From an uncultured Actinomycetota bacterium (lineage in GTDB: Bacteria; Actinomycetota; Actinomycetes; Mycobacteriales; SCTD01): 64,000 nucleotides of DNA. Each line of letters starts with the position of its first letter. Position 1 is the stretch's first letter. The stretch covers positions 281,306-345,305 of the forward strand of contig CAWJNR010000004.1 of the NCBI GenBank assembly GCA_963844295.1, written 5' to 3'. A program made the position numbers and the translations under genes. The notes below the pieces were generated by a model. It was not told the origin of the DNA. It saw only the letters and a program-made list of their open reading frames with translations, and did not search any database. This document shows positions 2,192 through 64,000 of the stretch, piece after piece.

Positions 2192-3823
<1,632 letters not shown>

Positions 3824-5578: not shown

Positions 5579-6433
5579 GTGCGGTGGTCGCGGCTGTGGC
5601 GCACCCGGCGACCGGAGACCTTCACCGAGAAGGTCCGCTACAAGATGCTGCGCGACCGGCGTGCGCTCCAGGTCGTCTTCGCCGACAAGGCCGCCATGCG
5701 CGCCCACGTGGCGCAGCTCGTGGGCGCGCAGCACCTGCCCGCGCTCGTGGCGCTGCTGGACGACCCGGCTGAGCTGGCCGCGCTGGCCCTGCCGCGCGAG
5801 TACGTCGTCAAGCCGACGCACGGCAGCGGGGCCTGCGTGGTCGTGTCGGACGCGGCACCGGCGGGGGAGCGGCTGCCGACGCCGGAGCACGGCTGGGTCT
5901 ACGCCCACGTGCGGCCCGAGCACGCCGACCCGCAGCAGCTCGCGGAGATCGCGAGCGGCTGGTGCGGCAAGCGCTACGGCCGCGGGCCGAACCACGAGTG
6001 GGCGTACGGGCAGGTGCGGGCGCGGGTCCTGGTGGAGGAGCTGCTGGCAGGACCCGACGGCGGGCTGCCGCACGACCTCAAGCTGTTCGTGCTGTCCGGG
6101 CGGGTGCACTTCGCGCAGCTGGACGCCGACCGCTTCGGCACCCACGTCCAGGACTTCTTCGACCGCGACTGGCAGCCGCTGGCGATGACCGGCGGTCACC
6201 CGCGCAGCGCCGTGCCACCGCCGCGGCCGGTGCGGTACGAGGAGGCGGTCGTCCTGGCCGAGCGGCTCGGGGTCGGCACCGACTTCGTGCGGGTGGACCT
6301 GTTCTGCCTGCCCGACCGGGTGGTCGTGGGTGAGCTGACCAGCAGCCCGGCCGGCGGGGACAGCCCGTTCGACCCGCCCTCGTGGGACGCGGTCTTCGGG
6401 GCGCCGTGGACGGTGCCGCGCCGCTACCGCTGA
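5579..6433 (+). CDS. ATP-grasp fold amidoligase family protein (TupA-like)
   Basis: PETFTEKVRYKMLRDRR..VFADKAAMRAHV, YVVKPTHGSGACVVV, HDLKLFVLSGRV and FVRVDLF motifs. The ORF opens at 5468; I chose the in-frame GTG at 5579, so the start is uncertain. Confidence 0.75.
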   Translation: MRWSRLWRTRRPETFTEKVRYKMLRDRRALQVVFADKAAMRAHVAQLVGAQHLPALVALLDDPAELAALALPREYVVKPTHGSGACVVVSDAAPAGERLPTPEHGWVYAHVRPEHADPQQLAEIASGWCGKRYGRGPNHEWAYGQVRARVLVEELLAGPDGGLPHDLKLFVLSGRVHFAQLDADRFGTHVQDFFDRDWQPLAMTGGHPRSAVPPPRPVRYEEAVVLAERLGVGTDFVRVDLFCLPDRVVVGELTSSPAGGDSPFDPPSWDAVFGAPWTVPRRYR

Positions 6434-9400
6434 GCGAGCTGCAGGGGTTCGACCCGCCCCCGCCGCACGAGCAGCCCCCGGCCCGGCACGACCTCGCCGC
6501 CCGTCGTGCGGGACAGCCGCACCCCCAGCAGGTCCCCGTCGCCGGCGGACTGCGGCGACAGCAGCAGCCCGGTGCGCGCCTTGCGCAGGTCGACCACGAA
6601 GCCGCGGTAGCCGGTGACCAGCTCCTCGGTCGTCCCGGCGGCGACGACGACGGTCCCGGCGTCGCGCGCCTCCCGCACAGCCTTCTCGAGGACGTGCGAC
6701 AGGCCGCTGTCGACGAGCAGCTCGGCGTCGTCGACCAGCAGCAGGCACCGCCCGTCCCCCACCTGCGCCTGCAGCTCGGCGGAGGCGTCGCGGGAGGTCA
6801 CGCAGCCGGGCAGCGCGCGCAGCGGGCTGGGGCGCGGGGCGACGGCGACGACCCGCAGGCCGCTGCGGGCCAGGCCGGCGGCGACGGTCAGCAGCGCGCC
6901 GCTGCGGCCGGAGCCGGCCGGTCCGCCGACCAGGAAGCCGGGCAGCGCGTCGGCCAGGTCGACCTCGACCGGGTCGAGCTCGTCGCCGCCGACGCCCAGC
7001 ACGACGCCGAGCGGCGCGGCCGCGGGCGGCAGGTCGGCCGCCCGCACGAGGGTCGGCAGCAGCTCGACGCGGCGCGGGCGGTGCAGGACCGGCGCGGGGG
7101 TGCGGGCGGCGTGCGCCGCGACCGCCGCAGCCTGCGCCGGGCCGGTCGGGTCGGGGGCGAGCAGCGCCACCTGCGCGACCAGGGGCGCGCCCGTCATCGA
7201 CCAGCCGCGTCCGGCCGGCAGGTGCTCGGGCACCAGCCGGCTGGGCAGGCCGGCGGCCGGGTAGTCGCCGCGGTCGGCCATGCGCAGCAGCAGCGTGTCC
7301 TCCACCATCGAGGAGATGCGCCCGACCAGCCCGCTGCGGTCGGCGCTGAGCGCGACGTGCAGCCCGACCGCCGGCCCCTCGCGGAGCAGCCGGTAGCAGA
7401 GCTCCACCAGGCGTCCGGCGTCGACGTCCTGGAAGGCGGTGAGGAAGGCCTCCCACCGGTCGAGCAGCAGGACCAGGTGGGGCAGCCGGTCGGCGGGCAT
7501 CGCGGCGGCGCGCTGCTCGGCGAGGTCCGCCAGCCCGGTCTCGGACAGCAGCGCCTGGCGGCGGCCGACCTCCGCGGCCAGCCACGTGAGCAGCCGGTCC
7601 ACCCGCTCCGGCTGGTCGCGCGCGACGACGGCGCCGGCGTGCGGGAGTGCGGCCAGCGGGCCGAGACCGCCGCCGCCGGGGTCGATCGCGTAGAGGTGCA
7701 GGTCGTCCGGGGAGGACGCAGTGGCGAGCGCGACCGCCAGGGTGCGGAGTGCCGTCGTCCGGCCCGACCGGGGTGAGCCGAGCACCATGAGGTGGGTCGA
7801 CCGGTCGAGGTCGAGCACCAGCGGACGCCGGGCCTGCTCGCCCGGCACGTCCACGACGCCGTACGCCGCGGGCGGCACCCGGCCGGGCGTGCCTGCCAGC
7901 GGGTCCTCCACCGGCGGCAGGTCGGCCGTGACGACGAGGGAGGGCAGCGGGGGGAGCCACGGCGAGCGCTGCGGCGGCAGGCCGAGACGGGCAGCCGCGC
8001 CGACGCAGGCGTCGACCAGCAGGGACAGGTCGGTGACGTCCTGGTCGCCCTCGGCGCCGGGCTGCAGGCGGGGCAGCGGGTCGCCCAGCTCGGCGGCGGG
8101 CAGCAGCTCCACCACCGGTTCCGCGTCGCGCGCGACGACCGAGGGCCGCCGTCCGCCGACCCGGCCGGCCTGGAAGGCGGTGAGGTCGGCGTGGCCGGTG
8201 CGGGCGTACGCGCGGCCTGGCGTGGTCCGGCTGATGGTCGCGGCCAGCGGGGAGTCGAGGACGTCGCGCGACTCGGCGTCGCGGGTGACCGCCAGGCACA
8301 GCCGCAGGTTGGTGTTGGCGCGGATGTCGGCCGAGACGACGCCCTCGGGGCGCTGCGTCGCGAGCACGAGGTGGACGCCCAGCGACCGGCCGCGCATGGC
8401 GATGCCGACCAGGCCGCCGACGAAGTCCGGGAGCTCCTCGACCAGCGAGGCGAACTCGTCGACCACGATCACCAGGCGCGGCAGCGGTGCGCGGGGGCCG
8501 CCCGGGGTGCCGACGAGGCGGCGGTGGTCCTCGACGTCCTTGGCGCCCACCTGCTGCAGCACCGCCTCGCGGCGCGAGAGCTCCGCGCCGAGGGACGCGA
8601 GCGCGCGCTCGACCAGCGTCCCGTCCAGGTCGGTCACCAGGCCCACGGTGTGCGGCAGGCGCTCGCAGGGGCCGAACGCCGCGCCGCCCTTGTAGTCGAC
8701 CAGCACGAAGGTCAGCTCGTCCGGCCGGTTCGTCAGCGCCAGCGAGGCGAGCAGCGTCTGCAGCAGCTCGCTCTTGCCCGATCCGGTCGTGCCGGCGACC
8801 AGCGCGTGCGGACCGTCGCGGGACAGGTCGACGGCGAAGGCGCCGTCCGGTCCCCGGCCGAGGACGGCGGTGGTCGAGCGGCCGGGGGAGGCCCAGCGCT
8901 CCACGACCGCCGCCGCGTCGTCGCTGCTCCCGGTCAGCGGCAGCTCGACGACCTCGGTCCACCGGAGGGAGGCGGGCAGCCCCTCCTCGCCGCCGCGGTC
9001 ACGGCTGTCGTCGCGCAGCGGCGCCAGCGCCCGGGCGACCGCGGCGGCCCAGGAGCGCGGGGCGAGGTCGGCGGTGGCCCCGCTCAGGTCCGGGCGTCCG
9101 GTGACCCTGACCTGCAGCCGACCGCCCGGCCCGGTCAGCACGGCGGTCGCGCCGCACTCCTCCGGGAGCAGCCGCGGGTCGTGGTCGAGGCACACGGCGT
9201 GGACGCCCACGGCCGGTCCGTCCGCGGAGCAGGGCCGCCAGCCCGGGGACCGTGCGCAGCGCCCGGGCGCCGTCGACGACGACGAGGACCGGCTTGTCGT
9301 CGGTGCGGGCGCTGCGGCTCAGGCCGGTGCGCTCGGCCCGGCGGGCCTCGACGAGCGCCGGTGAGCTCGCCGACGCGCAGCGCCGCCTGCGCCGGGCCGA

Positions 9401-10742
9401 GCCCGAGCAGGGCGCGGCAGTCCTGCCCGGCGTCCGGCCGGGTGTGCGGCAGCCAGCCGGCCCAGTCCCAGGCCGCCGCCGCAGCGGGCTCGGCCAGGAC
9501 CACGAGCGACAGGTCGCGCGGGCTGTGCAGGACGGCGGCCTGGCCGACGACGAAGCGCGCCAGCGCCTGCACGGACCGGCGCTCACCGGCGATGCCGAGC
9601 ACGCCGGCCTCGCGCAGCGGGACGACGACCGGCACGGAGCGCGCTGTCGCCAGCCCCCTCTGCGAGGTCGCCCTCGGCCTCCACCCGGGCCGGCTGGTCG
9701 GCCAGCCCGAGCCGCAGGTCGAGCAGGTCGTCGTCGCCGCGGCGGCGCTCCCACAGCCGCGGCAGCGGCCCCAGCGCGGTGAGGAGCAGCTCGGCGGCGT
9801 CGGGGGCCTGCTCGCGCCGGGCCGCCTCGTCGGCCCGGACGGCGTCGAGCAGGGTGTGCTCCGCGACGTCGCGCTGCGCCCGCCACAGCGCCCGGTCCCG
9901 GCGGCTGCGGCGCCGCCCGCTCCGGCGCTCGGTGACCAGGTTGCCCAGCACCACCACCGGCGAGAGCAGCGTGAACAGCAGGAACGTCGTGCTCCCGGTG
10001 ATCTGCCACATCGCGACGCCGAGCACCAGCGGTGCGACCAGCGCGATCACCGGCACCGGGCTGCGCTCGCGCTCGGCCAGTGGCGCGGGCACCACCACCT
10101 GCACCAGGGGCGCCGGCGGCCGCAGGCGGGGCGGCCGGTTGAAGGCCAGCCGGCCCTCGGCCTCGGGCGCCAGGGGTGCCGGGCGGTCCGGCTGGGCGGG
10201 ACAGGACGAGCGAGGAGCCGCCCACCCGCAGGACGGCCCCCAGCGGGAGGGCGACCGGATCGGGCACGCGACCGGAACGCCGTCGACGGTGGTGCCGTTC
10301 GTCGAGCCGAGGTCGACGACCTCCGCACCGTCGTGGGTCAGCCGCAGCCGGCAGTGCGCGCGGCTGACGTCGGGGTCCTCCAGGCGCACCCCCGCGCCGG
10401 CGTCCCGGCCGACGACGACCTCGCCGGGAGACAGCCGGTGCACCCCTCCGGCGTCGGGACCGCCGACGACCCGGAGCTCGACCAGCCCGTCGAGGGCAGG
10501 CGGGGTGGTGGCGGCGTCGACCTGCAGCAGGGCTCCCTGGACGAGCGGAGGCAGTCCGAGCAGGGCTGAGGGTGGCGAGCGCCGTGCCGCCGGTCGACAG
10601 CTGCCCGACCGCACCGGCGGGCAGCACGGCTCCGAGGAGCTGAGCGGCCGACGTCGGCCAGGCAGGCTCCGTCGGGGGAGCGCACGACGACGTCGGTCCG
10701 GGCGCCGGTGGCGGGCACCAGCAGGCCCAGGCCGAGCTCCAC
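6424..10742 (-). pseudogene. FHA-domain / FtsK-SpoIIIE family triple-ATPase (EccC/EssC-like), frame-disrupted
   Basis: N-terminal FHA (VVGRDAGAGVRLEDPDVSRAHCRL..DLGSTNGTTVDG). Two TM helices (PVIALVAPLVLGVAMWQITGSTTFLLFTLLSPVVVLG). Three P-loops (GTTGSGKSELLQT, GSPRSGRTTAL, GPAGSGRSGAL). The pieces lie in different frames, with shifts near 10650, 10570, 10268, 10200, 9645, 9360 and 9225. Confidence 0.8.
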
Positions 10743-10824
10743 GTGCTGCTGCCCCTCCGCCGTCGGAGGAGCCGGTCTACCAGGTCGCCGGGGACCTGGC
10801 CGCCACTGTCCACAGCCCGTGAGG

Positions 10825-11295
10825 TCAGCCCCCGGACCGCCCCGGCGGCATGTCGTAGGTGACCCACGGCGTGCGCACGGCGACCTGGTCGTACTTGCCG
10901 CGGGCGCGGTAGTTGTCGTCCGCAGTGATCCACCGGACGACGCTCCAGCCGCGCTCGGCGGCGAGGTCCTGCAGCGCGCCCAGCAGCGCGTCGACCGCAC
11001 CGGAGCCGCGGGCCAGCTCGTCGACGTGCAGGTCGTCGAGGAACCCGCCGACCGTGGAGGACAGCGGCCGGGCGAAGGGCCGCACGTGCGCCAGGCCGAC
11101 CGGCCGGTCGTCAGCGCCGACCACGACGAGGCCCTGCACCTCGTGCGCAGGGTCCATCAGCCAGCCCCAGGTGCGCTCGGCCTGCTCGTCGGTCTGCGCG
11201 ACCCGGTAGAAGGCGGCGTACGCGGCGTAGAGCTCGCGCCAGCGGTCGTGGTCGTCGGCGGTGACCGGACGGACCCGCCAGCGCTGCTCTTCCAC
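10825..11295 (-). CDS. GNAT family N-acetyltransferase
   Basis: 156-aa intact ORF. VGGFLDDLHVDELARGSGAVDALL matches acetyl-CoA binding motif A (R/Q-x-x-G-x-G/A). Confidence 0.8.
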   Translation of the reverse strand: MEEQRWRVRPVTADDHDRWRELYAAYAAFYRVAQTDEQAERTWGWLMDPAHEVQGLVVVGADDRPVGLAHVRPFARPLSSTVGGFLDDLHVDELARGSGAVDALLGALQDLAAERGWSVVRWITADDNYRARGKYDQVAVRTPWVTYDMPPGRSGG

Positions 11296-16677: not shown

Positions 16678-17426
16678 CGGCGGTGGTCGAGCAGGCGCTG
16701 CAGCCGGTCCTGGGTGTCGGCGCTGGCGAGGCAGACCGCCTGAGCCGCTGCGTCGACGAGCCGGTGGCGGTCGCCCTGCACGCGCATGGCTTCTTTCGCC
16801 AGCCGCTGGGCCAGGCTCGATCCCTCGGCGAGGTCGCCGAGCAGGTCGGCCAGCGCGTCGTCCAGCTCGTCCGTCTCGACACAGCGCGAGACCAGGCCGG
16901 TGGTGGCCGCCTGCGCGCCGGTCATGCGTCGCCCGGTCAGCACGAGGTCGGTCGCCAGGCCGGTCCCGACGAGCTGAGCGAGGCGCACCAGGGCGCCCGC
17001 GCTGGGGACGATCCCGAGGCGCACCTCGGGCAGACCCCAGAGGGCTGTCGTCGAAGTGATGCGGAAGTCGCACGCGAGTGCGAGCTCGCACCCGCCGCCG
17101 AGCGCCGCACCGTCCACCACGGCGACGGTCGGCCACGGGTGGTCGTGCAGGCGCTGGAAGAGGGTGCCGTTGAGCCGCGACAGCGAGTCGTCCGTGGAGC
17201 GGGCGCGCAGCTGCGCCACATCGCTCCCCGCCACGAACATGCCCGGCGCGCGACTGCGGACGACCACCGGCAGCGGTGTGGCCGCGTGCTCCTCGAGCGC
17301 TGAGGACAGGGCCCGACTCAGGTCGAGGTCGAGGGCGTTGCGCTTGTCCGGACGGTCGAGCAGCAGCGTCACCGCGTGCGGGCCCACGTCGACCTGGAGG
17401 ACCGCACGGGCAGGGCTTGGGGACAT
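16674..17426 (-). CDS. enoyl-CoA hydratase/isomerase (crotonase) family protein
   Basis: LLLDRPDKRNAL, VAVVDGAALGGGCELALACDFRI and GLPEVRLGIVPSAG (oxyanion hole). ATG at 17426; a TATACA box ends about 9 nt upstream, so the transcript may be leaderless. Confidence 0.85.
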   Translation of the reverse strand: MSPSPARAVLQVDVGPHAVTLLLDRPDKRNALDLDLSRALSSALEEHAATPLPVVVRSRAPGMFVAGSDVAQLRARSTDDSLSRLNGTLFQRLHDHPWPTVAVVDGAALGGGCELALACDFRITSTTALWGLPEVRLGIVPSAGALVRLAQLVGTGLATDLVLTGRRMTGAQAATTGLVSRCVETDELDDALADLLGDLAEGSSLAQRLAKEAMRVQGDRHRLVDAAAQAVCLASADTQDRLQRLLDHRR

Positions 17427-17503
17427 GCCGACACTGTATAGAATGTCAGGTTCCCGGGGGAGCACCCTTGGCCACCCTGCCCGAACGAGGAGCGTGCACC
17501 CCA

Positions 17504-34273: not shown

Positions 34274-35632
34274 ATGACGAGCGTGCCTGCGCGTCGCGAC
34301 AGCGCACGACCCCCGGCGCCCGACGCCCCGGCGAAGGGATCCTGCACACTGCATCCTGTTGATCGGCCACGGCACTGGGACTCCCGTCCCTCGCCTACGA
34401 CGAACGGGAGCGCGGTGCCGCCCGGCGAACACCCAGGTACGGGCCCCGCCGTCCCGGAGGACCAACCCTCGGCTCTCGGGCTGCGGCTCTACCTCCCGAC
34501 CTTGTTCTTCGGCATCGGTCAGGGGGCCATCGCCCCTGTGGTGGCGCTGTCGGCGCTGCAGCGCGGCGCCTCGGTCAGCCAGGCGGGGCTCGTCGTCGCC
34601 ATGCTGGGCGTCGGCCAGCTCCTGGGGGACCTGCCCGCCGGGGCGCTGGCTGCCCGAGTCGGTGAACGGCGGGCCATGCTGGGCGCCACGGTGCTCGGCG
34701 TCGCCGCTCTCGTGGTCGCCGCCCTGACCGAGTCGCTGCCCCTGCTCGCGATCGCCATCACGGTCAACGGCTTCGCCACGGCGGTGTGGGGCCTCGCGCG
34801 GCAGAGCTACATCACCGACGTCGTGCCCGTGCGCATGCGCGCCCGGGCCCTGTCGACCCTGGCGGGGTCGCGGCGCTTCGGCTTCTTCGCGGGCCCGTTC
34901 CTGGGTGCGGCCGTCATCTCCGTGACCAGCACCGACGCCGGTTACTGGATCCACGTCGCGACATCGATGGCTGCGGCGGTGGTGCTGGTCGCGCTCCCGG
35001 ACCGCCGGGACGCCGCACCCGACCGCGAGGCGCGCCACGGCACGCGGGGTCCCTCCACTCTCCGCGTCGTACGCGAGAACCTGCACGTGCTGCGGACGCT
35101 GGGCTTCGCGGCCGTGCTCGTGGGAGCGACCCGCGCGTCCCGTCAGGCGGCACTGCCGCTGTGGGCCGCGCACCTTGGCCTGGACGCGGGAGCCGCGAGC
35201 CTGGTCTTCGGCATCGCCGGCTTCGCAGACCTGCTGCTGTTCTACCCTGCCGGCAAGGTCATGGACCTGTACGGCCGCCGGTGGATCGGCGTGCCGTCGA
35301 TGCTCGTGCTCGGGGCGTCGCTCGCGCTGCTCCCGCTGGCGCAGACGACCACCCCGTTCGTCGCGGTGGCCGTCCTGATGGGCATCGGCAACGGCATGAG
35401 CAGCGGCATCCTCATGGTGCTGGCCGCCGACGCCTCCCCCGCCATAGGGCGGTCCCAGTTCCTGGGCGCGTGGCGGTTGTGCTCCGACGCCGGCAACGGT
35501 GCCGGCCCCCTCGTCCTCGCCGGCGTTGCCGCCGCCACCGCTCTTGCACCCGCTCTGGTCACCACCGGCGTACTCGGCCTGGCTTCCGCCGCGGCTCTGC
35601 AGCGGTGGATCCCGCGGCGACCTGACGGTTAG
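34274..35632 (+). CDS. MFS transporter
   Basis: About 12 predicted TM helices. MFS loop motif GALAARVGERRAM. The start is uncertain. Confidence 0.8.
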   Translation: MTSVPARRDSARPPAPDAPAKGSCTLHPVDRPRHWDSRPSPTTNGSAVPPGEHPGTGPAVPEDQPSALGLRLYLPTLFFGIGQGAIAPVVALSALQRGASVSQAGLVVAMLGVGQLLGDLPAGALAARVGERRAMLGATVLGVAALVVAALTESLPLLAIAITVNGFATAVWGLARQSYITDVVPVRMRARALSTLAGSRRFGFFAGPFLGAAVISVTSTDAGYWIHVATSMAAAVVLVALPDRRDAAPDREARHGTRGPSTLRVVRENLHVLRTLGFAAVLVGATRASRQAALPLWAAHLGLDAGAASLVFGIAGFADLLLFYPAGKVMDLYGRRWIGVPSMLVLGASLALLPLAQTTTPFVAVAVLMGIGNGMSSGILMVLAADASPAIGRSQFLGAWRLCSDAGNGAGPLVLAGVAAATALAPALVTTGVLGLASAAALQRWIPRRPDG

Positions 35633-35753: not shown

Positions 35754-36185
35754 GTGGTCGGCGTCGTCGGCGGACCGGCCAGCACCGGCTACGACCACGT
35801 CGAGGCCGAGGTCCGGGAACTGGTCCGCCGTCGGGGGCTCGACCCGATCGAGGACCGGGTCGCGATGCGCCGACTGGTCGACGACGTGGTCAACGACTAC
35901 GACGAGCGGGCGCTGACGTCGTCGCTGCCGCCGCTGCCCGACGCCCGCTCGGCCGCCCGCGCCGTCTACGACGCCGTCGCCGGCTTCGGCCCGTTGCAGC
36001 GCCACCTCGACGACCCGACGGTCGAGGAGATCTGGATCAACGAGCCGGGGCGCGTCTTCGTCGCCCGACGTGGTCGTTCCGAGCTCACCACGACGATCCT
36101 GAACGACGGCCAGGTCCGCGACCTCGTCGAGAAGATGCTGAAGACCACCGGCCGACGGGTCGACCTGTCGACGCCGTTCGCATAG
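35754..36185 (+). pseudogene. cpaF: CpaF/TadA-family pilus-assembly (type II/IV secretion) ATPase, 5-prime fragment of 142 codons
   Basis: GFGPLQRHLDDPTVEEIWINEPGRVFVARRGRSELTTTILNDGQVRDLVEKMLKTTGRRVDLSTPF is the conserved N-terminal domain. It stops abruptly at TAG 36183-36185, where family members continue VDAxLPDGSRL. That continuation is found at 40614. Confidence 0.8.
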
Positions 36186-36453
36186 CCGAGCCAACATGCG
36201 CAAGGAACGCGCTTGATCCTCGGCTGACGCGCTCTCGGCGCGAAGCGTCCTTCCCGACCGGCATCGGGTGCTCACCGACCCGAGGCGCCGGCCGGGTAGA
36301 CGCCGCTCACTACGACCGCTCGGCCGTTCAGCGGAGCCAGCAGTGCTGCCGACGCACGGCAGGACCCGCTACAGACGCGACGTACCGAACGATTCACCCG
36401 CGGTCACCCAGCGAACACGCCAGGCAACATGACTAGCCCTGGGCGTTTAGCGC

Positions 36454-36474
36454 GTTGAGAGAATCTCAACGCCG
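36454..36474. promoter_or_regulatory. perfect 9-bp inverted repeat GCGTTGAGA-gaa-TCTCAACGC upstream of the surface-protein gene
   Basis: Read directly. It lies in the 465-nt non-coding left arm of the insertion, about 180 nt upstream of the GTG at 36651. It could be an operator or a hairpin. Confidence 0.4.
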
Positions 36475-36650
36475 ACTGGTCCGGATGGCTCATGTGCACC
36501 GGATGTCCGATCTCTAACTTCGGACGGGACAGACCGTGACGCAGTGATCCGGGACCATTACTTGGTCGCCTTGGCCCCGGGGAGCGAGTGGCGAACCCGA
36601 CGCGGTTCAGCAAGGGGCGGTGACGCCTCTTCAGCCCCTCAGGAGACCTC

Positions 36651-38869
36651 GTGCGTCGTACAGGCAAGGCAGTCGGAGTAGTCGCGGCGGCAACGTCGCT
36701 GGTCATGATCGGTGGCGGGCTTGCTCTTCGCCGACACGTTGCAGGACTCCATCGAAGACTCGGGCACGGGGGTGGCGCTGGTCGCCGGGTCATCCACCAG
36801 CGGTAGCGCCACGATCCGTGTCGTCGGCAACAATGCCGCAGGTGACCCGGACCCCGGCTGCAACATCGACGCTGGCGAAAACCCGCTCAGACTTGACGTT
36901 GTGACGCCGGAGGGTGTCACGGCCAACCCTGACCCCTTGTCGATCACAGCTTGTGGTGAAGACTTCACAGTCACCTTCACCGCCAGCGCCAGCGCGGTCA
37001 GTGGCCACGCAACCGTCCGGGTCCTGTCCGGGCCGGCCGGCGGTGGCACATACGTCAACCAGGTCGACATCCCCATCACAGTGACGCAGGCCAACGCGAA
37101 GCCCGTCGTGTCCGTGAACGGGGTCACTCCCGGCACCAGCTACGTCCTTGGGGCGGTGCCGACCGCTACCTGCTCTGTCACGGACGCCGAGACGGCGAGC
37201 ATCCCGTCCTTCACCGCTGCGCTGAGCGGCGAGCTGACCGCCGGGCTCGGCACTCAGACTGCGACGTGCGACTACACCGACGCTGGCGGCCTGAAGGCCG
37301 ACACCAAGACGGTCACCTACTCCATCGTCGCGCCGCCGAACACCAAGCCGACGGTCGCCGTGCGCGGGGTCACCGACGGCGCGAGCTACGAGATCGGTGC
37401 TGTCCCGGCCGCGACCTGCGACGTCACCGACGCTGAGGACGGCAACAGCAGCAAGGCAGCTGTTCTGAGCGGCGTCCTGTCACACGGTCTGGGCAGCCAG
37501 ACCGCTACGTGTGACTACACCGACGCGGGCGGCCTGCAGGCGGACACCCAGTCGGACACGTACACCGTCGTCGACACCGGCAAGCCCACGATCACGCACA
37601 CCCTGACGCCGGCTGCCGGACCGAACGCGGCTGGTTGGTACAACGAAGACGTCACCGTGGACTTCACCTGCGACGACGAAGGCGGCTCCGGCATCGCCTC
37701 CTGCGTGGGTGACACGACCTTGGGAGACGGTGCGAACCAGTCCGTCGACTGGGACGGCCACCGACTGGGCGGGCAACACCGCCACCGACGAGGTGTCCGG
37801 CATCAACGTCGACACCAGCGCCCCCAACGCGCCGACCGCAGTGCTGAGCCCGGCCCCGAACGGCGCCGGCTGGAACAACACCAACCTGGTCGTCGACTTC
37901 ACCGCCGTCGGTGACAACGGCCCCAGCGGAGTCGCCAGCTGCACCGCCGACGTTCCGGTCAGCACCGAGACGGCGAGTCAGACCGTCAGCGGCACCTGCA
38001 CCGACAACGCCGGCAACGTCAGCGCCGCCACCGAGGTGACCGTCAAGCTGGACAAGACCGGCCCCGTCATCAGCAACACGGTTACGGTTACGGGCGACGA
38101 GGGCGCCAACGGCTGGTACACCTCCAACGTGGAGGTCATCTTCACCGCGATCGACGCGCTGTCGGGGCTGACCGCCGCCAGCAAGTCGGTGACCAGCAGT
38201 GGACAGGGCGCCGCCGTGCAGGTTCAGAGCCCAGCGTTCACCGACCTCGCCGACAACACCACCGACGCTGGGGACGTCACCAAGTCCTACAAGATCGACC
38301 TGACGAACCCCACCGCTGCCTTCGACAGCACCATCGGCTCGGTGTACTTCGGGTCCGTCCCGACTGCCCCGACCTGCACCGCCACTGATGGGCAGTCCGG
38401 CCCGGCCGGTTGCGAGGTGGCTGGCTACAACACCACCGTCGGCACGCACACCCTCACGGCTACGGCCACGGACAACGCCGGCCGCACCAGCACCACGCAG
38501 CAGACGTACACCGTTAAGGCGTGGACGCTGAGCGGCTTTTACCAGCCGGTCGACATGGGCGGTGTCTGGAACACCGTCAAGGGCGGCAGCACGGTCCCGC
38601 TGAAGTTCGAGATCTTCAGCGACAAGACCGAGCTCACCACCACCGGCGCAGTCAAGACCTTCACCCAGAAGGCCATCGCCTGCCCGAACGCCGCAGCAGT
38701 GGACGAGATCGAGATCGTGAGCACCGGAGGCACCACCCTGCGCTATGACGCCACGGGTGGCCAGTTCATCCAGAACTGGGCAACTCCCCGGACGCCTGGC
38801 GCCTGCTACGTCGTCACGATGACCGCCCTGGACGGTTCGCAGATCACGGCGAACTTCAAGCTCAAGTAG
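36651..38869 (+). pseudogene. secreted multi-domain Ig-like / PxKF-domain surface protein, two apparent frameshifts
   Basis: GGAG RBS plus GTG gives signal peptide VRRTGKAVGVVAAATSLVMIGG in frame 3. The body is in frame 1 from about 36712 and in frame 2 from about 37745. Contains two tandem ~80-aa repeats, three GW(Y/N)xxxVxVxF..D..SG modules, and a C-terminal WTLSGFYQPVDM...STVPLKFEIF...LRYD..GQFIQNW (P-x-K-F motif). Confidence 0.7.
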
Positions 38870-38887
38870 GAACAGCGCGGAACGATG

Positions 38888-38913
38888 CCCCACCCGGCAC
38901 CTGCCGGGTGGGG
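38888..38913 (+). terminator. 12-bp GC-rich hairpin downstream of the surface-protein gene
   Basis: CCCCACCCGGCA-CC-TGCCGGGTGGGG read directly. It starts 19 nt after the TAG stop. Confidence 0.6.
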
Positions 38914-38981
38914 CCTCGGCCTTCCATCGAACCGGCCGCAGCTGCCCTGGACGGACAGCTACCAGCAGCTAGGAGCTCGGC

Positions 38982-39464
38982 TTGAATCGCGACGGCGAGA
39001 CAGTGCTGGTGGCGTCGGACATGCCAGAGCAGCGTGCGTGCACACCGTCGCTCGACTCGTCGGGTGAGGATGGCCTTGCGTTGAGCGAGGCGGCGCAGCT
39101 GTACGACGTGTCACTGCGCTCGCTTCGCCGGCTGATCACGCTCGGGGGGATCCCAGCCCACAAGATCAAGGGCGCGCGAGGTCAGGAATGGCGCGTCACG
39201 GCCGCCACGTTGGACGCCGCTGGCTACGCCCCTCGCCTCATCGACCTCACCCAGGCGGAGGACCCGAACAGCTCGGAGGTCAGGCGGCTGACGCAGGCGC
39301 TCGTCGCTGCCCAGGCGCGCAACGCCGAGCTCGATGGTCGACTCGGCTACGCCCTTCTGACCGTGGGGCGACTGCGTGGACGACTTCGAGACGCGGGCAT
39401 CAACCCCGACGAGCTATTCGGCGCCGACCTTGAGGCGGAGGAAGCCCCACACGGGGAGCGTTGA
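38982..39464 (+). CDS. helix-turn-helix (MerR/excisionase-type) DNA-binding protein with coiled-coil tail
   Basis: LSEAAQLYDVSLRSLRRLITLGGIPAHKIKGARGQEWRV is the HTH_17/excisionase signature. The C-terminal part is helical (RRLTQALVAAQARNAELDGRLG). Confidence 0.65.
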   Translation: MNRDGETVLVASDMPEQRACTPSLDSSGEDGLALSEAAQLYDVSLRSLRRLITLGGIPAHKIKGARGQEWRVTAATLDAAGYAPRLIDLTQAEDPNSSEVRRLTQALVAAQARNAELDGRLGYALLTVGRLRGRLRDAGINPDELFGADLEAEEAPHGER

Positions 39465-39511
39465 TCCGCACCTGCGACGTCCAGGCTCGCGTGACGTTCG
39501 ACGGTCCTGTC

Positions 39512-39770
39512 ATGGGCGAAGCTGACGCGAGGGAGCCACGGTTCATGCGCCTGTCCGACGTCGCCGGCGAGCTCGACGGGAGCATGAGCCAGGTCCAGGC
39601 ACTGGTGCGCTCAGGCGATCTACCTGCCATCAAGATCGGCGCGGGGCTTCTGGCGGGTGGAGCGGGCCGTGCTAGAGGAGTGGATCGCGCGCATCTACGC
39701 CAGCACACGGGCTGCCATGGTGGCCGAGGAGTTGAGGGTGCCTCCAGAGGTTGGCTTGAACGGTCTTTAG
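39512..39770 (+). pseudogene. excisionase-family HTH protein, one apparent frameshift
   Basis: RFMRLSDVAGELDGSMSQVQALVRSGDLPAIKIG in frame 2 continues as GRGFWRVERAVLEEWIARIYA in frame 3. The shift is at a G-run at about 39640-39648; stop at 39768-39770. Confidence 0.6.
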
Positions 39771-39983
39771 CTCAATGCTGTTGGCTTCGCTCGCCTCGCA
39801 CCGAGTCGCCGTCAGCACCTCGGTGGGACCGTCGACGCGGCTGCCTCCTGTGGCTACGGTCGCGGGTGGCCAGGTGAGGGAGGGCCGCATGACGACGGGG
39901 ACGGTGTACCCACATCCACGCTTGCAGGAGGTCCTGCTCGCGGCCTCCGGCCGTGCCCGAACTTCAAAGGCCCCTGCGCGGAG

Positions 39984-40613
39984 ATGCGTTGGACGCCAGA
40001 GGCAGGTCACGCCCCGCGTGGCTTCGCGGGCGCTACCGGCGAGCTCGCGGACGTCCGGCTGGTCCTGGTGTGTGCGGAGCCGGGAGACCCTCAGGCATGG
40101 GAGCGCTACGACGGACGCTCGGGTGAGGACCTCCTGCGGGCGACCCACGACTTTACGTACGCCTCGTTCCGCGACGGTACTGACCAGTTCCACCGGAACG
40201 TGCGTCTGATCCTCGACATGTGCTTCCCGGGTGGGGCCTGTGATGAGCAACTAGAGCAAGCCTGGATCACGGAGTCCGTCCTGTGCTCAGCTCGCGTTGA
40301 GAGCGGTTCCGTCTCCGCCGCCGCAGCCAGGACCTGCAGGTCGACCTACCTGCAACGCGAACTTGATCTGCTCCCGAACGCGGTCGTTGTCGCCCTCGGG
40401 GCAAAGGCGCGCGACCGCATGAGAGGGATCAAGGGGGAAGTAGTGGACGCCGTTGCGGCTGCGCCGCCAGGCTGCAACCGACGGGACGCTCGCGCCTCCT
40501 GGAAGGCAGCGGCCGCTCGCGTCCGGGACACAGCGTCGGGGGCGGGCGTCTCCTGCACCGTGGCCTCGGCTGCCACCGTGAACGGCACCGACGCACCCGT
40601 TGGCATCGGTCCA
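39984..40613 (+). CDS. uracil-DNA-glycosylase-superfamily-like protein (uncharacterised subfamily)
   Basis: GHAPRGFAGATGELADVRLVLVCAEPGDP resembles UDG motif A (GE-PG). LPNAVVVALGAKA and AAAPPGCN fall at the motif-B position. A possible longer N-terminus from the ATG at 39889 would need another frameshift. The ORF runs without a stop into the cpaF fragment at 40614. Confidence 0.45.
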
Positions 40614-40670
40614 CCCTTCGTCGACGCGATGCTGCCCGACGGCTCGCGGCTGCACGTCGTGATTCCCGAC
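40614..40670 (+). pseudogene. cpaF: 19-codon internal fragment of cpaF/tadA (PFVDAMLPDGSRLHVVIPD)
   Basis: This is the exact continuation expected after ...DLSTPF at 36179. Similarity to the family ends after VIPD, where the sequence becomes LASSVRGPGPGETVNLF-stop instead of the conserved I-x-R..W.VNIRKF. Confidence 0.6.
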
Positions 40671-40740
40671 CTTGCATCCAGCGTGCGTGGCCCCGGTCCC
40701 GGCGAGACCGTAAACCTGTTCTGACCTGGCCTTTCGCACC

Positions 40741-40780
40741 TGGACCGCGCTGGACCGTTCTGGACCGTTCTGGACCGTCG
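40741..40780 (+). repeat. four tandem 10-bp iterons TGGACCGNNC (CTGGACCG core)
   Basis: tggaccgcgc tggaccgttc tggaccgttc tggaccgtcg read directly. They lie about 150 nt upstream of the integrase start and about 70 nt inside the junction at 40671. Confidence 0.9.
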
Positions 40781-40928
40781 TCGGGCTCTGACGGCCCACA
40801 GACGGCCCAGGGACGATCTTCCTGGGCGGCGCCGGAAGCTGTGCCGGTGAGGCGCTGGATCCACAGCTGCGCCGGTTGCTCTAGCAACGCCGTCCGGGTC
40901 GGGTGAGGTGGGGCCGGAGGCGGGCCTC

Positions 40929-42101
40929 ATGGGCACGATCGAAGATCGTTGGTGGAGCAGTCAGGTGGGCGGGCGGGTGCCGGGGGAGCGGTCCGGACGG
41001 GGCTTGCGGTGGCGGGCCCGCTACCGCGACGGTGAGGGCCGGCATCGCTCCCGGTCGTTCGCCCGCAGGCCGATGCGGTGCGCTTCCTGACGTGGGTGCA
41101 GGCCGATCTGCTGCGCGGCACCTACATCGATCCGGGCCGGTCCCGCACTGCCCTGTCGGTGTACGCCGAGCTGTGGCTGGCCTCGTTGTCGGTCCGGCCG
41201 TCGACCCGCCGCACCCACGACAGCAACCTGCGGACCTGGATCCTGCCGGCACTCGGCGCCCGCACCCTTGGCCTCGCTCACCCCGACCGATGCCCGCGGG
41301 CTGGTGCGGCAGCTGGGGGAGGGCTCGCGCCATCGACGGCTCATCACGTGCATGGGCTGCTGGCCTCGATCTTGAGCTTGACGGTGGAGGACGGCTACCT
41401 GTCGCGCAACCCGGCCGCGCGGACCGGACCCGGCCGACCACGGCGGGTGCAGGTCCGGCCGTTCACCGTCGGCAGGTGCAGGCGCTGATCGACAGCACTC
41501 CGGAGCGGTTCCGGGTGGCGGTGCTGCTGGGTGCCGGCTGCGGCCTGCGGATCGGCGAGGTGCTCGGCCTGAGCCGTCGATGCGGTCGACTTGCACGCGG
41601 GTCAGTTGGCGGTCAGTCGGCAGCTGCAGGCGCTGTCCGGTCAGGGCCTGGTGCTGCGGCCACCGAAGAGCCACAGCAGTGTCCGCACGGTGCCGCTGCC
41701 CGACAGCGTCGCCACCGCGGTCGCCGAGCACCTGCGCCGATGGCCACCGGCCGCGGGTGCGGGGGCGGGGGAGCAGGACCTGCTTGCTGCGGACAGTCAG
41801 CGGCCGGCCGATGTGGCCACGCACGTTCCACAGCCGCATCTGGCGCACCACCACGGACACCGCCGGGTTGCCGGGGGTGCGGTTCCATCAGCTGCGGCAC
41901 TTCTACGCCAGCGCCCTGATCGGGGCCGGGGAGAGCGTCAAGACCGTCCAGGCTGCCCTCGGCCACGCCAGCGCCGTCGAGACCCTGCAGGTGTACGTCG
42001 GACTGTGGTCCGACAACGACCAACGGACCCGCGCCGCTATCGACGCACTTCGACTCGGCGCGCCCGCCAGCGCCACGACATCGCACCCCGCGGGGACGTG
42101 A
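40929..42101 (+). pseudogene. tyrosine-type site-specific integrase, about six frame disruptions
   Basis: MGTIEDRWW...GRGLRWRARYRDGEGRHRSRSF, AVRFLTWVQADLLRGTYIDP, RFRVAVLLGAGCGLRIGEVLGL, LRPPKSHSSVRTVPLP, and FHQLRHFYASALIGAGESVKTVQAALGHASAVETLQVY (R..H-x-x-R..Y catalytic region). These are spread over three frames, with shifts near 41070, 41280, 41320, 41472, 41575 and 41808. Confidence 0.85.
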
Positions 42102-44843: not shown

Positions 44844-44926
44844 CTGACCGCACCGGCGTGTCCCGCTGGGTGGTCGGGAAGTGTCACGTTGCACTCACGG
44901 CGACGGGGCGGGCGTGCACTCGGCCG

Positions 44927-45157
44927 CTAGAGCGTGCCTACGACGTCACCACCGCCGTCGAGGATGACCAGCGGAAAGGCGCTCCCCGTCTCCTTCTGAG
45001 CGAGCAAGGCTTCGACTGCCTCACGTTGCCCGGCCCCGGTGAAGTTGGAGTCGGGCCGCACGGGCTGCCAGGGCGCGAGGAACCGCCGGTTCTGCACGTA
45101 CAGCGACCTCAGCGTCTCGGCATCGTCGGACGTCAGGCGGCGGGTGACGGCGGGCAT
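44927..45157 (-). pseudogene. GNAT (RimJ/RimL-like) acetyltransferase, 5-prime fragment of 76 codons
   Basis: MPAVTRRLTSDDAETLRSLYVQNRRFLAPWQPVRPDSNFT...FPLVILDGGGDVVGTL then a stop. The acetyl-CoA-binding half of the fold is missing. The break lies 47 nt from an inverted TTCCCGACC motif. Confidence 0.6.
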
Positions 45158-45284
45158 CGGCCGATGCTGCCAGAGCGAGCGGGAGGTGGCCGTAGCCGCT
45201 GGTCTCGTACGTCTCCGCGCTTGCGTCCTGGGCCCGCTAGCTGTTCTCGGTGCCAGCCCGACGCTGGCGCGCGGCTGTGGCGGC

Positions 45285-45800
45285 ATTTTTTTGTGTAGAT
45301 GACTTGGTAGATAGAGATGGGAGGCAAAGGGATCAGAAAGAGAGAGGTCTAAAGGATCTGAGAGCAGATAGACAACGACGTAGCGCTCTGGAGAAAAAGG
45401 AAATGGAAGAACAACGAGTAAAAGTAAGTGTAACTGGACGAGACTACTGCAAGGTAAGCAACAACGAGCGAGTGGTGTCACAGGATGAGGTGATCGAGAC
45501 GGCGTAAGTGCGGACGGCAGACGGGAAGTGCTGGGCTGCGCGACGGTGACAGCGAGACGAGGCGTTCTGGACGAGTCCTGCGCGACACGAGACGCGGTCT
45601 GGACGGCGTACAACTGGACAACAGCGACGCGCAACGCGGCCTGGCGAATGCCAACGGGGCCGTCTCCAAGGCAGCAGCTGGCAGCGCTGCCGGGTCCACA
45701 CAAGCGCAACGACCTGGCCAAGGTCAGCAAGAGCCACGACAGAGATGGTCGCCGCGACGATAAGGAGGTTGCCGAGTTCGCGCAGGGTCCCGACACCCGC
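45285..45800 (+). other. non-coding purine-rich, T-poor, lower-GC tract with CTGGAC repeats
   Basis: Hand count for 45301-45540: A84 C35 G87 T34, i.e. 71 percent purine and 51 percent GC. For 45541-45660: A27 C36 G45 T12. It begins after a T7 run. CTGGAC occurs at 45434, 45567, 45599 and 45614. There is an imperfect tandem duplication CTGCGCGAC..CGAGACG..TCTGGACG at 45535-45610. Confidence 0.7.
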
Positions 45801-46079
45801 GTGAATCTGGGTGCCGCTGACGCGCCGGGGAGTGGCTGTCCTGGCACCGAGAACGGCGGTCGGCCGGACCCGACCCACGGCGCAGAGGTACCTGTAGCCA
45901 TCCGTGCCGGCGTACCCGGGCGGGCCTCTTGATCGGGAGTGCCTGTCCTACGGGGACCGGTCCCGGGGGTGCCCTACCTTCGGGTCATGCACCCCACCCG
46001 TGACTAGGGCCGGCCGCTCCCTTCGCGCCGCCGCCCCGTCCGCAGCACGCCGGCCCAATGGCCGGGGTGCCCAGTCGTC

Positions 46080-63719: not shown

Positions 63720-64000
63720 ATGGGCACAGTCGAAGATCGTTGGTGGAGCAGCCGGCAGGGCGGGCGGGTGCCCCGGGAGCGGTACGGACGCGGCTTGCGG
63801 TGGCGGTCCCGCTCCGGGACGGTGAGGGCCGGCAGCGGTCCCGCTCGTTCTCTCGCAAGCCTGATGCGGTGCGCTTCTTGACGTTGGTGCAGGTCGATCT
63901 GCTGCGCGGCACCTACATCGACCCGGGCCGCTCCCGGACCGCCCTGTCGGTCTACGCCGAGCTGTGGCTGACCTCGTTGTCAGTGCCGTCGTCGACCCGC
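63720..64000 (+). pseudogene. second tyrosine integrase (paralogue of 40929-42101); runs off the window and has one frameshift in the visible part
   Basis: MGTVEDRWWSSRQGGRVPRERYGRGLRWR... then, after a shift at about 63815-63820, RDGEGRQRSRSFSRKPDAVRFLTLVQVDLLRGTYIDPGRSRTALSVYAELWLTSLS. Nucleotide similarity to the first integrase begins about 35 nt upstream of the ATG (GTCGGGTG(A/G)GGTGGGGCCGGAGG). Confidence 0.8.

Follow-up and report, generated by a model that had tools for sequence, protein, structure and literature searches.

The window analysed here, the whole stretch of 64,000 nucleotides (nt), is high-G+C actinobacterial DNA (~72% G+C) whose host is reported as a soil actinobacterium and whose nearest public relatives are metagenome-assembled genomes (MAGs) labelled Frankiaceae, Frankiales, Mycobacteriales and Actinomycetales. 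It carries the pilus ATPase gene cpaF/tadA as two detached pieces, codons 1-142 and codons 143-161, which lie 4.4 kb apart and are separated by an insert, termed element X; the second piece borders directly on DNA that leads to a decayed tyrosine integrase gene. Related loci and proteins are given by their L and P numbers. The locus comprises the following features:

35754 to 36180, forward strand: 5' fragment of cpaF/tadA, codons 1-142 plus one base (seen as an open reading frame (ORF), by tblastn and by blastn)
36181 to 40613, forward strand: element X, a 4.4-kb insert without an integrase gene
40614 to 40670, forward strand: cpaF codons 143-161 (PFVDAMLPDGSRLHVVIPD), the stretch of the gene between both insertion sites (blastn, tblastn)
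39984 to 40724, forward strand: ORF of 246 aa whose frame takes in the 57-nt cpaF piece and continues into the arm on the integrase side, with a weak, sub-threshold uracil-DNA glycosylase (UDG)-like match
40671 to 40811, forward strand: putative integrase-proximal attL arm, ~140 nt
40929 to 42101, forward strand: int1, tyrosine integrase pseudogene (alignment to the integrase of L110; Pfam)

The ORF at 35754-36185 encodes 143 aa with the C-terminal end ...GRRVDLSTPFA*, the frame reading A* after the cpaF part, with the stop at 36185. We searched the window by tblastn with the CpaF proteins of two intact relatives and with TadB, TadC, TadE and PrfB. Two regions matched intact CpaF, 35736/35784-36179 with 82-95% identity (E 1e-64 to 1e-80) and 40599-40673 with 80% identity over 25 aa (E ~7e-8); beyond these two pieces there was no further CpaF match, and the TadB, TadC, TadE and PrfB queries gave no match in the 64-kb window. 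When the window was compared by blastn with ~80 related loci, the cpaF homology ended at 36180 in essentially all of them and resumed at 40609/40614-40670 in dozens of loci, with 84-92% identity. The 57-nt piece occurs once in the window and begins with CCCTTCG, the right copy of a 7-nt repeat at the X junctions; neither a second copy of it nor a 3' part of cpaF that could mark an attR is present in the window.

The fragment shows CpaF/TadA family homology (PF00437, T2SSE) over the N-terminal region and lacks the Walker A/B ATPase core; everything to the right of codon 161 is missing from the window, and the sole Walker-A match there belongs to an unrelated ATP-binding cassette (ABC) transporter ATPase. 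The intact relative P0121 aligns to the Caulobacter CpaF structures 8RKD/9E24 (residues 56-375, E 2e-66), and in comparison with Caulobacter CpaF (8RKD, 8RJF, 9E24) the window copy keeps only residues 1-142 and the 19-residue piece. According to the alignment to 8RKD/9E24 the fragment is the N-terminal part only and ends ahead of Walker A, and both cuts fall into the N-terminal domain, inside its conserved segment GRRVD-S-P--DA-LPDGSR-V. As neither residues 1-142 nor the detached 19 residues contain Walker motifs, the window copy, judged by its sequence, cannot be an active ATPase. A functional cpaF has been lost, and the tad locus inactivated, at this position. In intact relatives cpaF is the first gene of an operon with the order cpaF-tadB-tadC-(small ORF)-tadE..., with prfB further on, and this tadB/tadC context is absent from the window. 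The upstream neighbour of cpaF is variable in these relatives and tadZ is not found there, so that the major facilitator superfamily (MFS) transporter gene at 34274-35632 is plausible as the native left flank of cpaF.

A preliminary description of this DNA had assigned cpaF codons 1-142 to 35754-36179 and a 19-codon continuation to 40614-40670, in frame with an unrelated upstream ORF (here 39984-40724), and had stated that similarity stops at 40671 on the integrase side and that the Walker-box part of the gene is not in the window. All of this is reproduced by the ORF, tblastn and blastn data, with the integrase starting at 40929. The left break proposed at ...STPF has to be moved by one base, since G 36180 also matches the gene and the break therefore lies at 36180/36181. 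The reported lack of tad neighbours holds for tadB and tadC, but the lack of tadZ is no anomaly, its absence upstream being normal for the clade.

The second cut (40670/40671, site 2) is adjoined by a PF00589 integrase gene, though a frameshifted pseudogene. The DNA that follows ...GTGATTCCCGAC (40671-40811) is homologous to, and conserved with, DNA at the same cpaF position in L001, L002 and L004. The junction after ...VVIPD, followed by the left arm and an integrase, is found in L001, L002, L004, L088, L106 and L119, and in all six an uninterrupted cpaF 5' part up to VVIPD(I) precedes the arm; the same target position and the same arm thus occur in independent genomes. An exact scan for GACGGCCCACAGACGGCCCAGG, a 22-nt motif of the arm, yielded 41 metagenome contigs. 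In L087, L091, L096, L099, L104, L105, L110 and L113 only ~10 nt (TCCVGACATC) ahead of the arm are common with cpaF, so that the crossover would lie where the 57-nt piece ends on the right, and in a third group of contigs the arm stands at the end of an unrelated gene (...FEHFTKF*). In the intact gene the crossover point sits in an imperfect palindrome, CGTCGTGAT-CCCCGAC-ATCACGCG. The arm contains four direct CTGGACCGNN repeats (40740-40779) and two copies of GACGGCCCA in opposite orientation (40790-40809); these repeats, conserved in L002, have the usual look of arm-type integrase-binding sites.

The junction also recurs at the protein level. We took a census of break positions in 120 short CpaF-like proteins (P0001-P0120), the best N-terminal matches in public data; this list is biased to short proteins, in part by a ranking artefact, and accordingly reports recurrence, not frequency, and a separate list of C-terminal homologues holds many full-length cpaF genes. 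Divergence at VVIPD, VVIPDI or VIPDIT was observed in 36 of the 120 proteins, with related tails such as [IL]A[YCSF][SG]VR..., and the tail of P0028, LASSVRGPESGEPVDLL, is nearly identical to that of the window, LASSVRGPGPGETVNLF.

Compared with L110, where an intact 387-aa tyrosine integrase lies downstream of the same arm, int1 changes from frame 3 to frame 2 near 41070, has stops at 41488-41590 and returns from frame 2 to frame 3 near 41735, and its Phage_int_SAM_3/Phage_int_M (SAM-like/central) and C-terminal PF00589 domains are distributed over separate ORFs. Hence int1 is a pseudogene, and the integrase that had been announced next to the cut is present, but not as an intact gene. This integrase family is without close relatives among characterised integrases; its best matches are integrases of Arthrobacter, Gordonia and Mycobacterium phages and of Streptomyces plasmids, with 30-35% identity. 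We read cut 2 as the attL of a tyrosine-integrase element on the basis of arm, core and integrase. Its counterpart was looked for up to 64 kb: no attR with the same core, no second core, no cpaF 3' part and no right arm were found, nor were there homologues of the right arms of other integrase-family members in 42-64 kb. Among the top 120 C-terminal CpaF homologues none came from a contig as long as that of the window (347,658 nt). A left-arm-like sequence, CTGACCTGCGCTTCTGCG, at ~57.1 kb (minus strand) was rejected as it shows no other arm features.

Two further contigs are of note with respect to this site. Contig L127 starts exactly at VVIPD, which, together with many contigs of 1-3 kb, fits assemblies that break where populations mix occupied and empty sites. 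L132 (509-11030) has a 5' fragment of cpaF that breaks off at VVIPDI, and after it an opposite-strand integrase fragment and an island with genes for thymidylate synthase, dihydrofolate reductase, dCMP deaminase, ParB-CE and SIR2_2, which looks like phage-type or defence cargo.

The first cut (36180/36181, site 1) is occupied by X, whose G+C content of 0.66-0.69 compares with 0.72-0.75 in its flanks. Its ends are marked by the following sequences:

36174 to 36180, forward strand: left 7-nt repeat CCGTTCG, part of cpaF and read directly; likely crossover region
36181 to 36205, forward strand: left end of X, 25 nt (CATAGCCGAGCCAACATGCGCAAGG), nearly identical in L125, L126 and L083
40592 to 40613, forward strand: right end of X, 22 nt (GACGCACCCGTTGGCATCGGTCCA region), where homology with L083 and L102 starts

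On the left, ...CCGTTCG is joined to CATAGCCGAGCCAACATGCGCAAGG in L125, L126 and L083. The proteins P0108 (L126) and P0120 (L125) also end with ...STPFA*, and both loci align with the window through ...CCGTTCG, CATAGCCG(A/C)GCCAACATG(C/T)GCAA and are wholly unrelated thereafter; beyond the 25-nt end the DNA is unrelated in every locus. On the right, GCACCCGTTGGCATCGGTCCA is joined to CCCTTCG in L083 and L102, the homology beginning 22 nt before the cpaF piece with GCACCCGTTGGCATCG(G/C)TCCA and continuing across the junction with CC(C/G)TTCGTCGAC; for L083 it amounts to 92% over 79 nt, the cpaF piece included. Conserved ends are thus common to copies with different cargo, on the left in the window, L125, L126 and L083 and on the right in the window, L083 and L102. 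The repeat at the two junctions is CCGTTCG/CCCTTCG in the window and CCCTTCG/CCCTTCG in L083, i.e. a direct target repeat is present at both, but with only 7 nt it is weak on its own. In L083, which comes from a 4.16-Mb contig, the right end is followed by cpaF from codon 143 to its end, unbroken at codon 161 and without the left arm of the integrase element, and then by tadB, tadC and tadE-like genes and prfB; the same left end lies 9.3 kb leftward, preceded by CCCTTCG and ~25 nt of cpaF-like sequence. By these alignments X is one member of a family of inserts with conserved ends of ~25 nt, CCSTTCG at both junctions and exchangeable cargo.

That X was inserted only once and then spread by homologous recombination through the cpaF flanks, without any active site-specific mechanism at site 1, is in our view improbable. 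Neither X copy holds a recombinase gene, the highly conserved cpaF flanks would offer ample homology and the terminal inverted repeat of X is statistically weak, all of which would suit such a spread. The 25-nt and 22-nt ends, however, are better conserved (~88-96%) than the adjacent cpaF coding DNA (82-85%), whereas the interiors of L125, L102, L083 and the window differ completely just past them, a pattern expected for functional ends with exchangeable cargo and not for one inherited insert. The relationships of the loci point in the same direction. The cpaF 5' fragment of the window is 90% identical at the nucleotide level to the intact gene of L003, and 88% and 87% identical to L004 and L002, which have the integrase junction only. 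Lower values, 84.6% and 82.5%, are obtained for the loci that have the left X junction, so that this junction cannot be one scar passed on by vertical descent.

Six loci have the integrase-type junction but no X, L083 has X-type ends but no integrase arm, and the X end and the integrase arm are found together in the window and in L102. As each element exists elsewhere without the other, the two cuts go back to independent events, one at each of two sites that lie 57 nt from each other. This agrees with the preliminary description as far as two events and a preferred integration region in cpaF are concerned, the junctions recurring base for base; the single preferred site that it suggested is to be replaced by two. 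Overall, we consider it probable that two site-specific insertions of different element families took place at two cpaF target sites 57 nt apart.

The arrangement can also be explained with one element family. X would then form the right-hand terminus of an integrase element, and the composite block would be an attP-type junction between two copies integrated in tandem, of which the left one later lost its integrase side by deletion. The excisionase-type helix-turn-helix (HTH) genes just upstream of the 57 nt, which point toward the integrase, the presence of the whole composite (right end, 57 nt, left arm, integrase) in L102 and the well-known tandem accretion of integrative elements (PMC5704250) are in line with this. 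X, however, has a conserved left end of its own and the 7-nt repeat at both junctions, and in L083 both of its ends bound an integrase-less element, with cpaF intact past codon 161 and no left arm. Moreover, six attL loci have an uninterrupted cpaF 5' part, the other junctions of the integrase family have only ~10 nt in common with cpaF, the right end of X contains no GACGGCCCA-type arm sites beyond chance, and the supposed deletion would have to end <=4 nt from the left edge of the block. We thus regard a single element family as unlikely.

An assembly chimera, or random deletions without target specificity, would be another conceivable cause, given that the window comes from one assembly and that int1, the surface protein gene of X and a second integrase gene at the right end of the window (int2) are frameshifted. 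Each of the three junction sequences is found again in assemblies made independently from other samples, though, and only mobile-element genes are frameshifted, the long ORFs around them being intact, which makes this the least credible explanation by far. The recurrence of the composite junctions in other data sets makes a misassembly unlikely.

Several observations weigh against two separate site-specific insertions. That the window and L102 both carry the X right end next to the integrase arm is what an attP or tandem junction would look like. Pfam and gene scans revealed no recombinase for X, neither in the window nor in the L083 element, and the 23 kb downstream of int1, a region of ordinary-looking genes, contain no attR and no 3' cpaF. 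The empty site 1 reconstructed for the window, GTCGACG-CCGTT-CGTCGAC, is a perfect palindrome, but L125 and L126 do not preserve the left half of it, and the inverted repeat of the X ends (CCGA-GCCAAC/GTTGGCATCGG) is matched by 15% of random 40-mer pairs from the window. With one palindrome half unconserved and the inverted repeat not significant, we can only infer the exact crossover of X, and the terminal inverted repeats were rejected as proof of a transposon or of an att core. Finally, the predominance of short proteins among the best 120 N-terminal matches is partly the ranking artefact, many full-length genes existing, and was discarded as a biological signal; occupancy frequencies are unreadable from this list.

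Other candidates for the mobility of X were tried as well. When the predicted dif site of Frankia alni (PMC3025954), used in place of the host's own, was compared with both X junctions it scored at the background mean, and X as an element exploiting Xer recombination (IMEX) was rejected. Likewise, the similarity of the left X junction to a class of junctions in L020 and L009, in which VDAML is followed by ..NHPG, was unconvincing. Homologues of the HTH_17 gene of X have integrases nearby in L128 and L130, but neither cpaF nor X ends are found there.

For the window we propose the following history. The chromosomal cpaF, the first tad-operon gene in this clade, would have been hit by two different site-specific insertions. 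Site 2 (codon 161), with a core of ~TCCSGACATC within CGTCGTGAT-CCCCGAC-ATCACGCG, would be the attB of the tyrosine-integrase family, and integration there would have left an attL made up of the cpaF 5' part, the 140-nt arm and the integrase, which would then have decayed to the present pseudogene. The right end of this element and the remaining cpaF-tadBC would lie beyond the window or be lost. Site 1 (codons 142/143, CCSTTCG) would hold X as a cassette without a recombinase gene, most likely moved by a recombinase acting in trans, or an internally deleted derivative of a larger element. After excision of X, cpaF would read ...GACGCCGTTCGTCGACGCG... (also ...CCGTTCGTCGAC..., the integrase arm staying), and the circle junction of X (attP) would be GGTCCACCSTTCGCATAGCC; after excision of the integrase element the gene would read ...GTGATCCCCGACATCAC... 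Codons 143-175 are invariant at the protein level with above-average conservation at third positions, which suits a stable target. Among 66 intact genes, the segment PFVDAMLPDGSRLHVVIPDITRRHWSVNIRKF is invariant at the protein level with above-average third-codon conservation, and DDPTVEEIWINEPGR further upstream is also above average at third codon positions.

Breaks at further positions recur in related cpaF genes. In the census of short proteins a break at PFVDA..LPD was found 18 times among the 120, with tails ..L[HSP][NSK][HQ]PG.., a break at HWSVN..IRK in ~11, a break at Walker A in ~13, seven of them with the tail VKCS. directly after GKTTL, and a break at EEVFEL in five; a junction after EEIWINE is present in L089, L121 and L098. 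The breaks after EEIWINE, at HWSVN..IRK, at Walker A and after EEVFEL lie outside the 57 nt, and cpaF seems prone to such junctions along its entire length. Junctions appear to recur at at least five or six positions, after EEIWINE, STPF, VDAML and VVIPD, at HWSVN..IRK and at Walker A. Among the 80 best-matching species-representative loci only L004, L009 and L020 show such junctions. L020 contains displaced cpaF 5' fragments at 1464-1964 and 6366-7046, broken between PFVDA.L and ..NHPG.., ahead of an intact cpaF at 9980-11233, and L009 a fragment with the same break at 2876-3118 and an intact cpaF at 9827-11224. The DNA between the fragments of L020 and L009 is without an integrase and carries peptidase S9-like and adenylate cyclase/STAND genes. 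These arrays look like serial replacement of the cpaF 5' end, and an element that supplies a 5' end of its own on entry, which has been described for islands in dusA (PMC4482086), would be expected to leave the L020 pattern.

One might go further and regard this stretch of the N-terminal domain as a hot spot at which several element families integrate in soil Actinomycetota, perhaps favoured by an advantage that the element gains when the Tad pilus is switched off or rewired, a reading that we find possible but rather doubtful. The benefit could possibly consist in the exclusion of pilus-dependent phages or in the exchange of the pilus for the element's own adhesin under control of cyclic di-GMP (c-di-GMP); on this reading some elements may rebuild the gene and leave displaced 5' fragments, others may knock cpaF out.

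The cargo of X consists of:

36528 to 36611, forward strand: c-di-GMP-II riboswitch aptamer (RF01786, 59.5 bits versus a gathering threshold of 53.5, E 1.4e-11, full-length model match)
36712 to 38869, forward strand: repeat-rich Ig-like surface protein, two overlapping ORFs (36712-37914 and 37709-38869), weak Big_13 match
38982 to 39464, forward strand: HTH_17 excisionase-family DNA-binding protein, 160 aa (PF12728, E 1.2e-7)
39461 to 39877, forward strand: weaker second HTH_17-like ORF

The riboswitch lies ~100 nt upstream of the surface-protein ORF, and L083 has a riboswitch at the orthologous position (58.4 bits), the leader 36442-36606 being 84% identical between the two. The two surface-protein ORFs are probably one gene with a frameshift; the homologue in L083 is a single ORF of 743 aa. 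X and the L083 element have three features in common, the riboswitch leader, the HTH_17 gene (67% nucleotide identity) and the surface protein in its C-terminal half. The 9.3-kb cargo of the latter comprises two c-di-GMP-II-type riboswitches (5815-5898 and 912-995, one of the GAG subtype), two GGDEF proteins and a GerE-type response regulator, in addition to the 743-aa surface protein, an HTH_17 protein and a 271-aa ORF. Judging from its gene content, this cargo looks like a self-contained c-di-GMP adhesion module.

Homologues of the HTH_17 gene directly follow a large surface-protein gene in L083, L128, L130 and L131. The pair of a surface protein and a 160-aa HTH_17 protein occurs without cpaF in L128 (1952-5635), L130 (1832-4703) and L131 (4141-7096), and in two cases the opposite strand carries a tyrosine integrase gene only a few kb away. 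Possibly the pair is a mobile module itself.

To the right of int1 the window contains genes for methylglyoxal synthase (mgsA), a HAD hydrolase, an MFS transporter, two extracytoplasmic function (ECF) sigma factors, a MacB-like ABC transporter, PadR, a methyltransferase, a histidine kinase and a response regulator-thioredoxin-reductase fusion; genes for replication or transfer and phage genes are absent. One further feature of this flank is related to the integrase element:

63720 to 64000, forward strand: int2, start of a second related integrase gene, ~90% identical to int1 at the nucleotide level, frameshifted and cut off by the end of the window

The homology of int2 to int1 starts ~25 nt upstream of the ATG, and int2 has neither the conserved arm nor the cpaF core. 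The region 44900-46000 has a low G+C content (0.648) and a single long ORF (44927-45901, minus strand, 324 aa), for which Pfam gave no match; it may be non-coding or a further insert of foreign origin. To the left of the locus, CATGCCGACACTGTATAGAATGTCAGGT at 17424-17451 (forward strand) agrees with the predicted Frankia alni dif at 20 of 28 positions, the only such match in the window, and is by its sequence a possible chromosome dimer-resolution site. Targets of the transfer RNA (tRNA) or transfer-messenger RNA (tmRNA) type are not present in the 64-kb window.

Islands and prophages with DusA-specific tyrosine integrases are reported at a single site in the 5' end of dusA (PMC4482086). Site 2 resembles these elements in its conserved position in the 5' half of a protein gene, its occurrence in many genomes and the integrase beside the junction. 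In contrast to the dusA elements, the site-2 element supplies no replacement and leaves cpaF truncated. The target gene is new as well, and no phage or plasmid integrase in the searched collections is more than 35% identical to the integrase. Restoration of the 5' end is observed in L020, at cpaF junctions of another class, and not in the window. In one study, the actinomycete integrative and conjugative elements (AICEs) of Frankia were, with one exception, inserted in the 3' ends of tRNA genes (PMC3218068). The elements described here share with AICEs of the pSAM2 type the high-G+C actinobacterial hosts, including Frankia, the combination of a tyrosine integrase with an excisionase-family HTH protein and an att identity of tens of nt (PMC3218068), but their target is a pilus ATPase gene and no Rep or FtsK-type Tra genes lie next to int1. 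A recombinase-less element with att-like ends beside an integrase element in one target gene also recalls the accretion of cis-mobilizable and integrative mobilizable elements (CIME/IME; PMC5704250), and the tandem islands at ssrA in Dehalococcoides represent several insert generations at one locus (PMC3146451). Unlike in both of these, X and the integrase element use two sites with unrelated cores.

In the literature we found no paper that describes cpaF/tadA as an attB or attachment gene. The elements are of known kinds, but their target gene is new; it adds a precisely mapped attachment gene for actinobacterial integrative elements, which otherwise mostly use tRNA genes, with two adjacent attB candidates of ~20-30 bp each. 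If active integrases are recovered (that of L110 is of an intact type), they could be used to integrate DNA in Frankiales and Mycobacteriales, groups that are hard to manipulate. Many short 'CpaF' annotations in metagenomes would represent displaced gene ends at att sites and no new protein family. The surface protein under the control of a c-di-GMP-II riboswitch, carried on a cassette in a pilus operon, would link the control of adhesion by a second messenger with mobile DNA.

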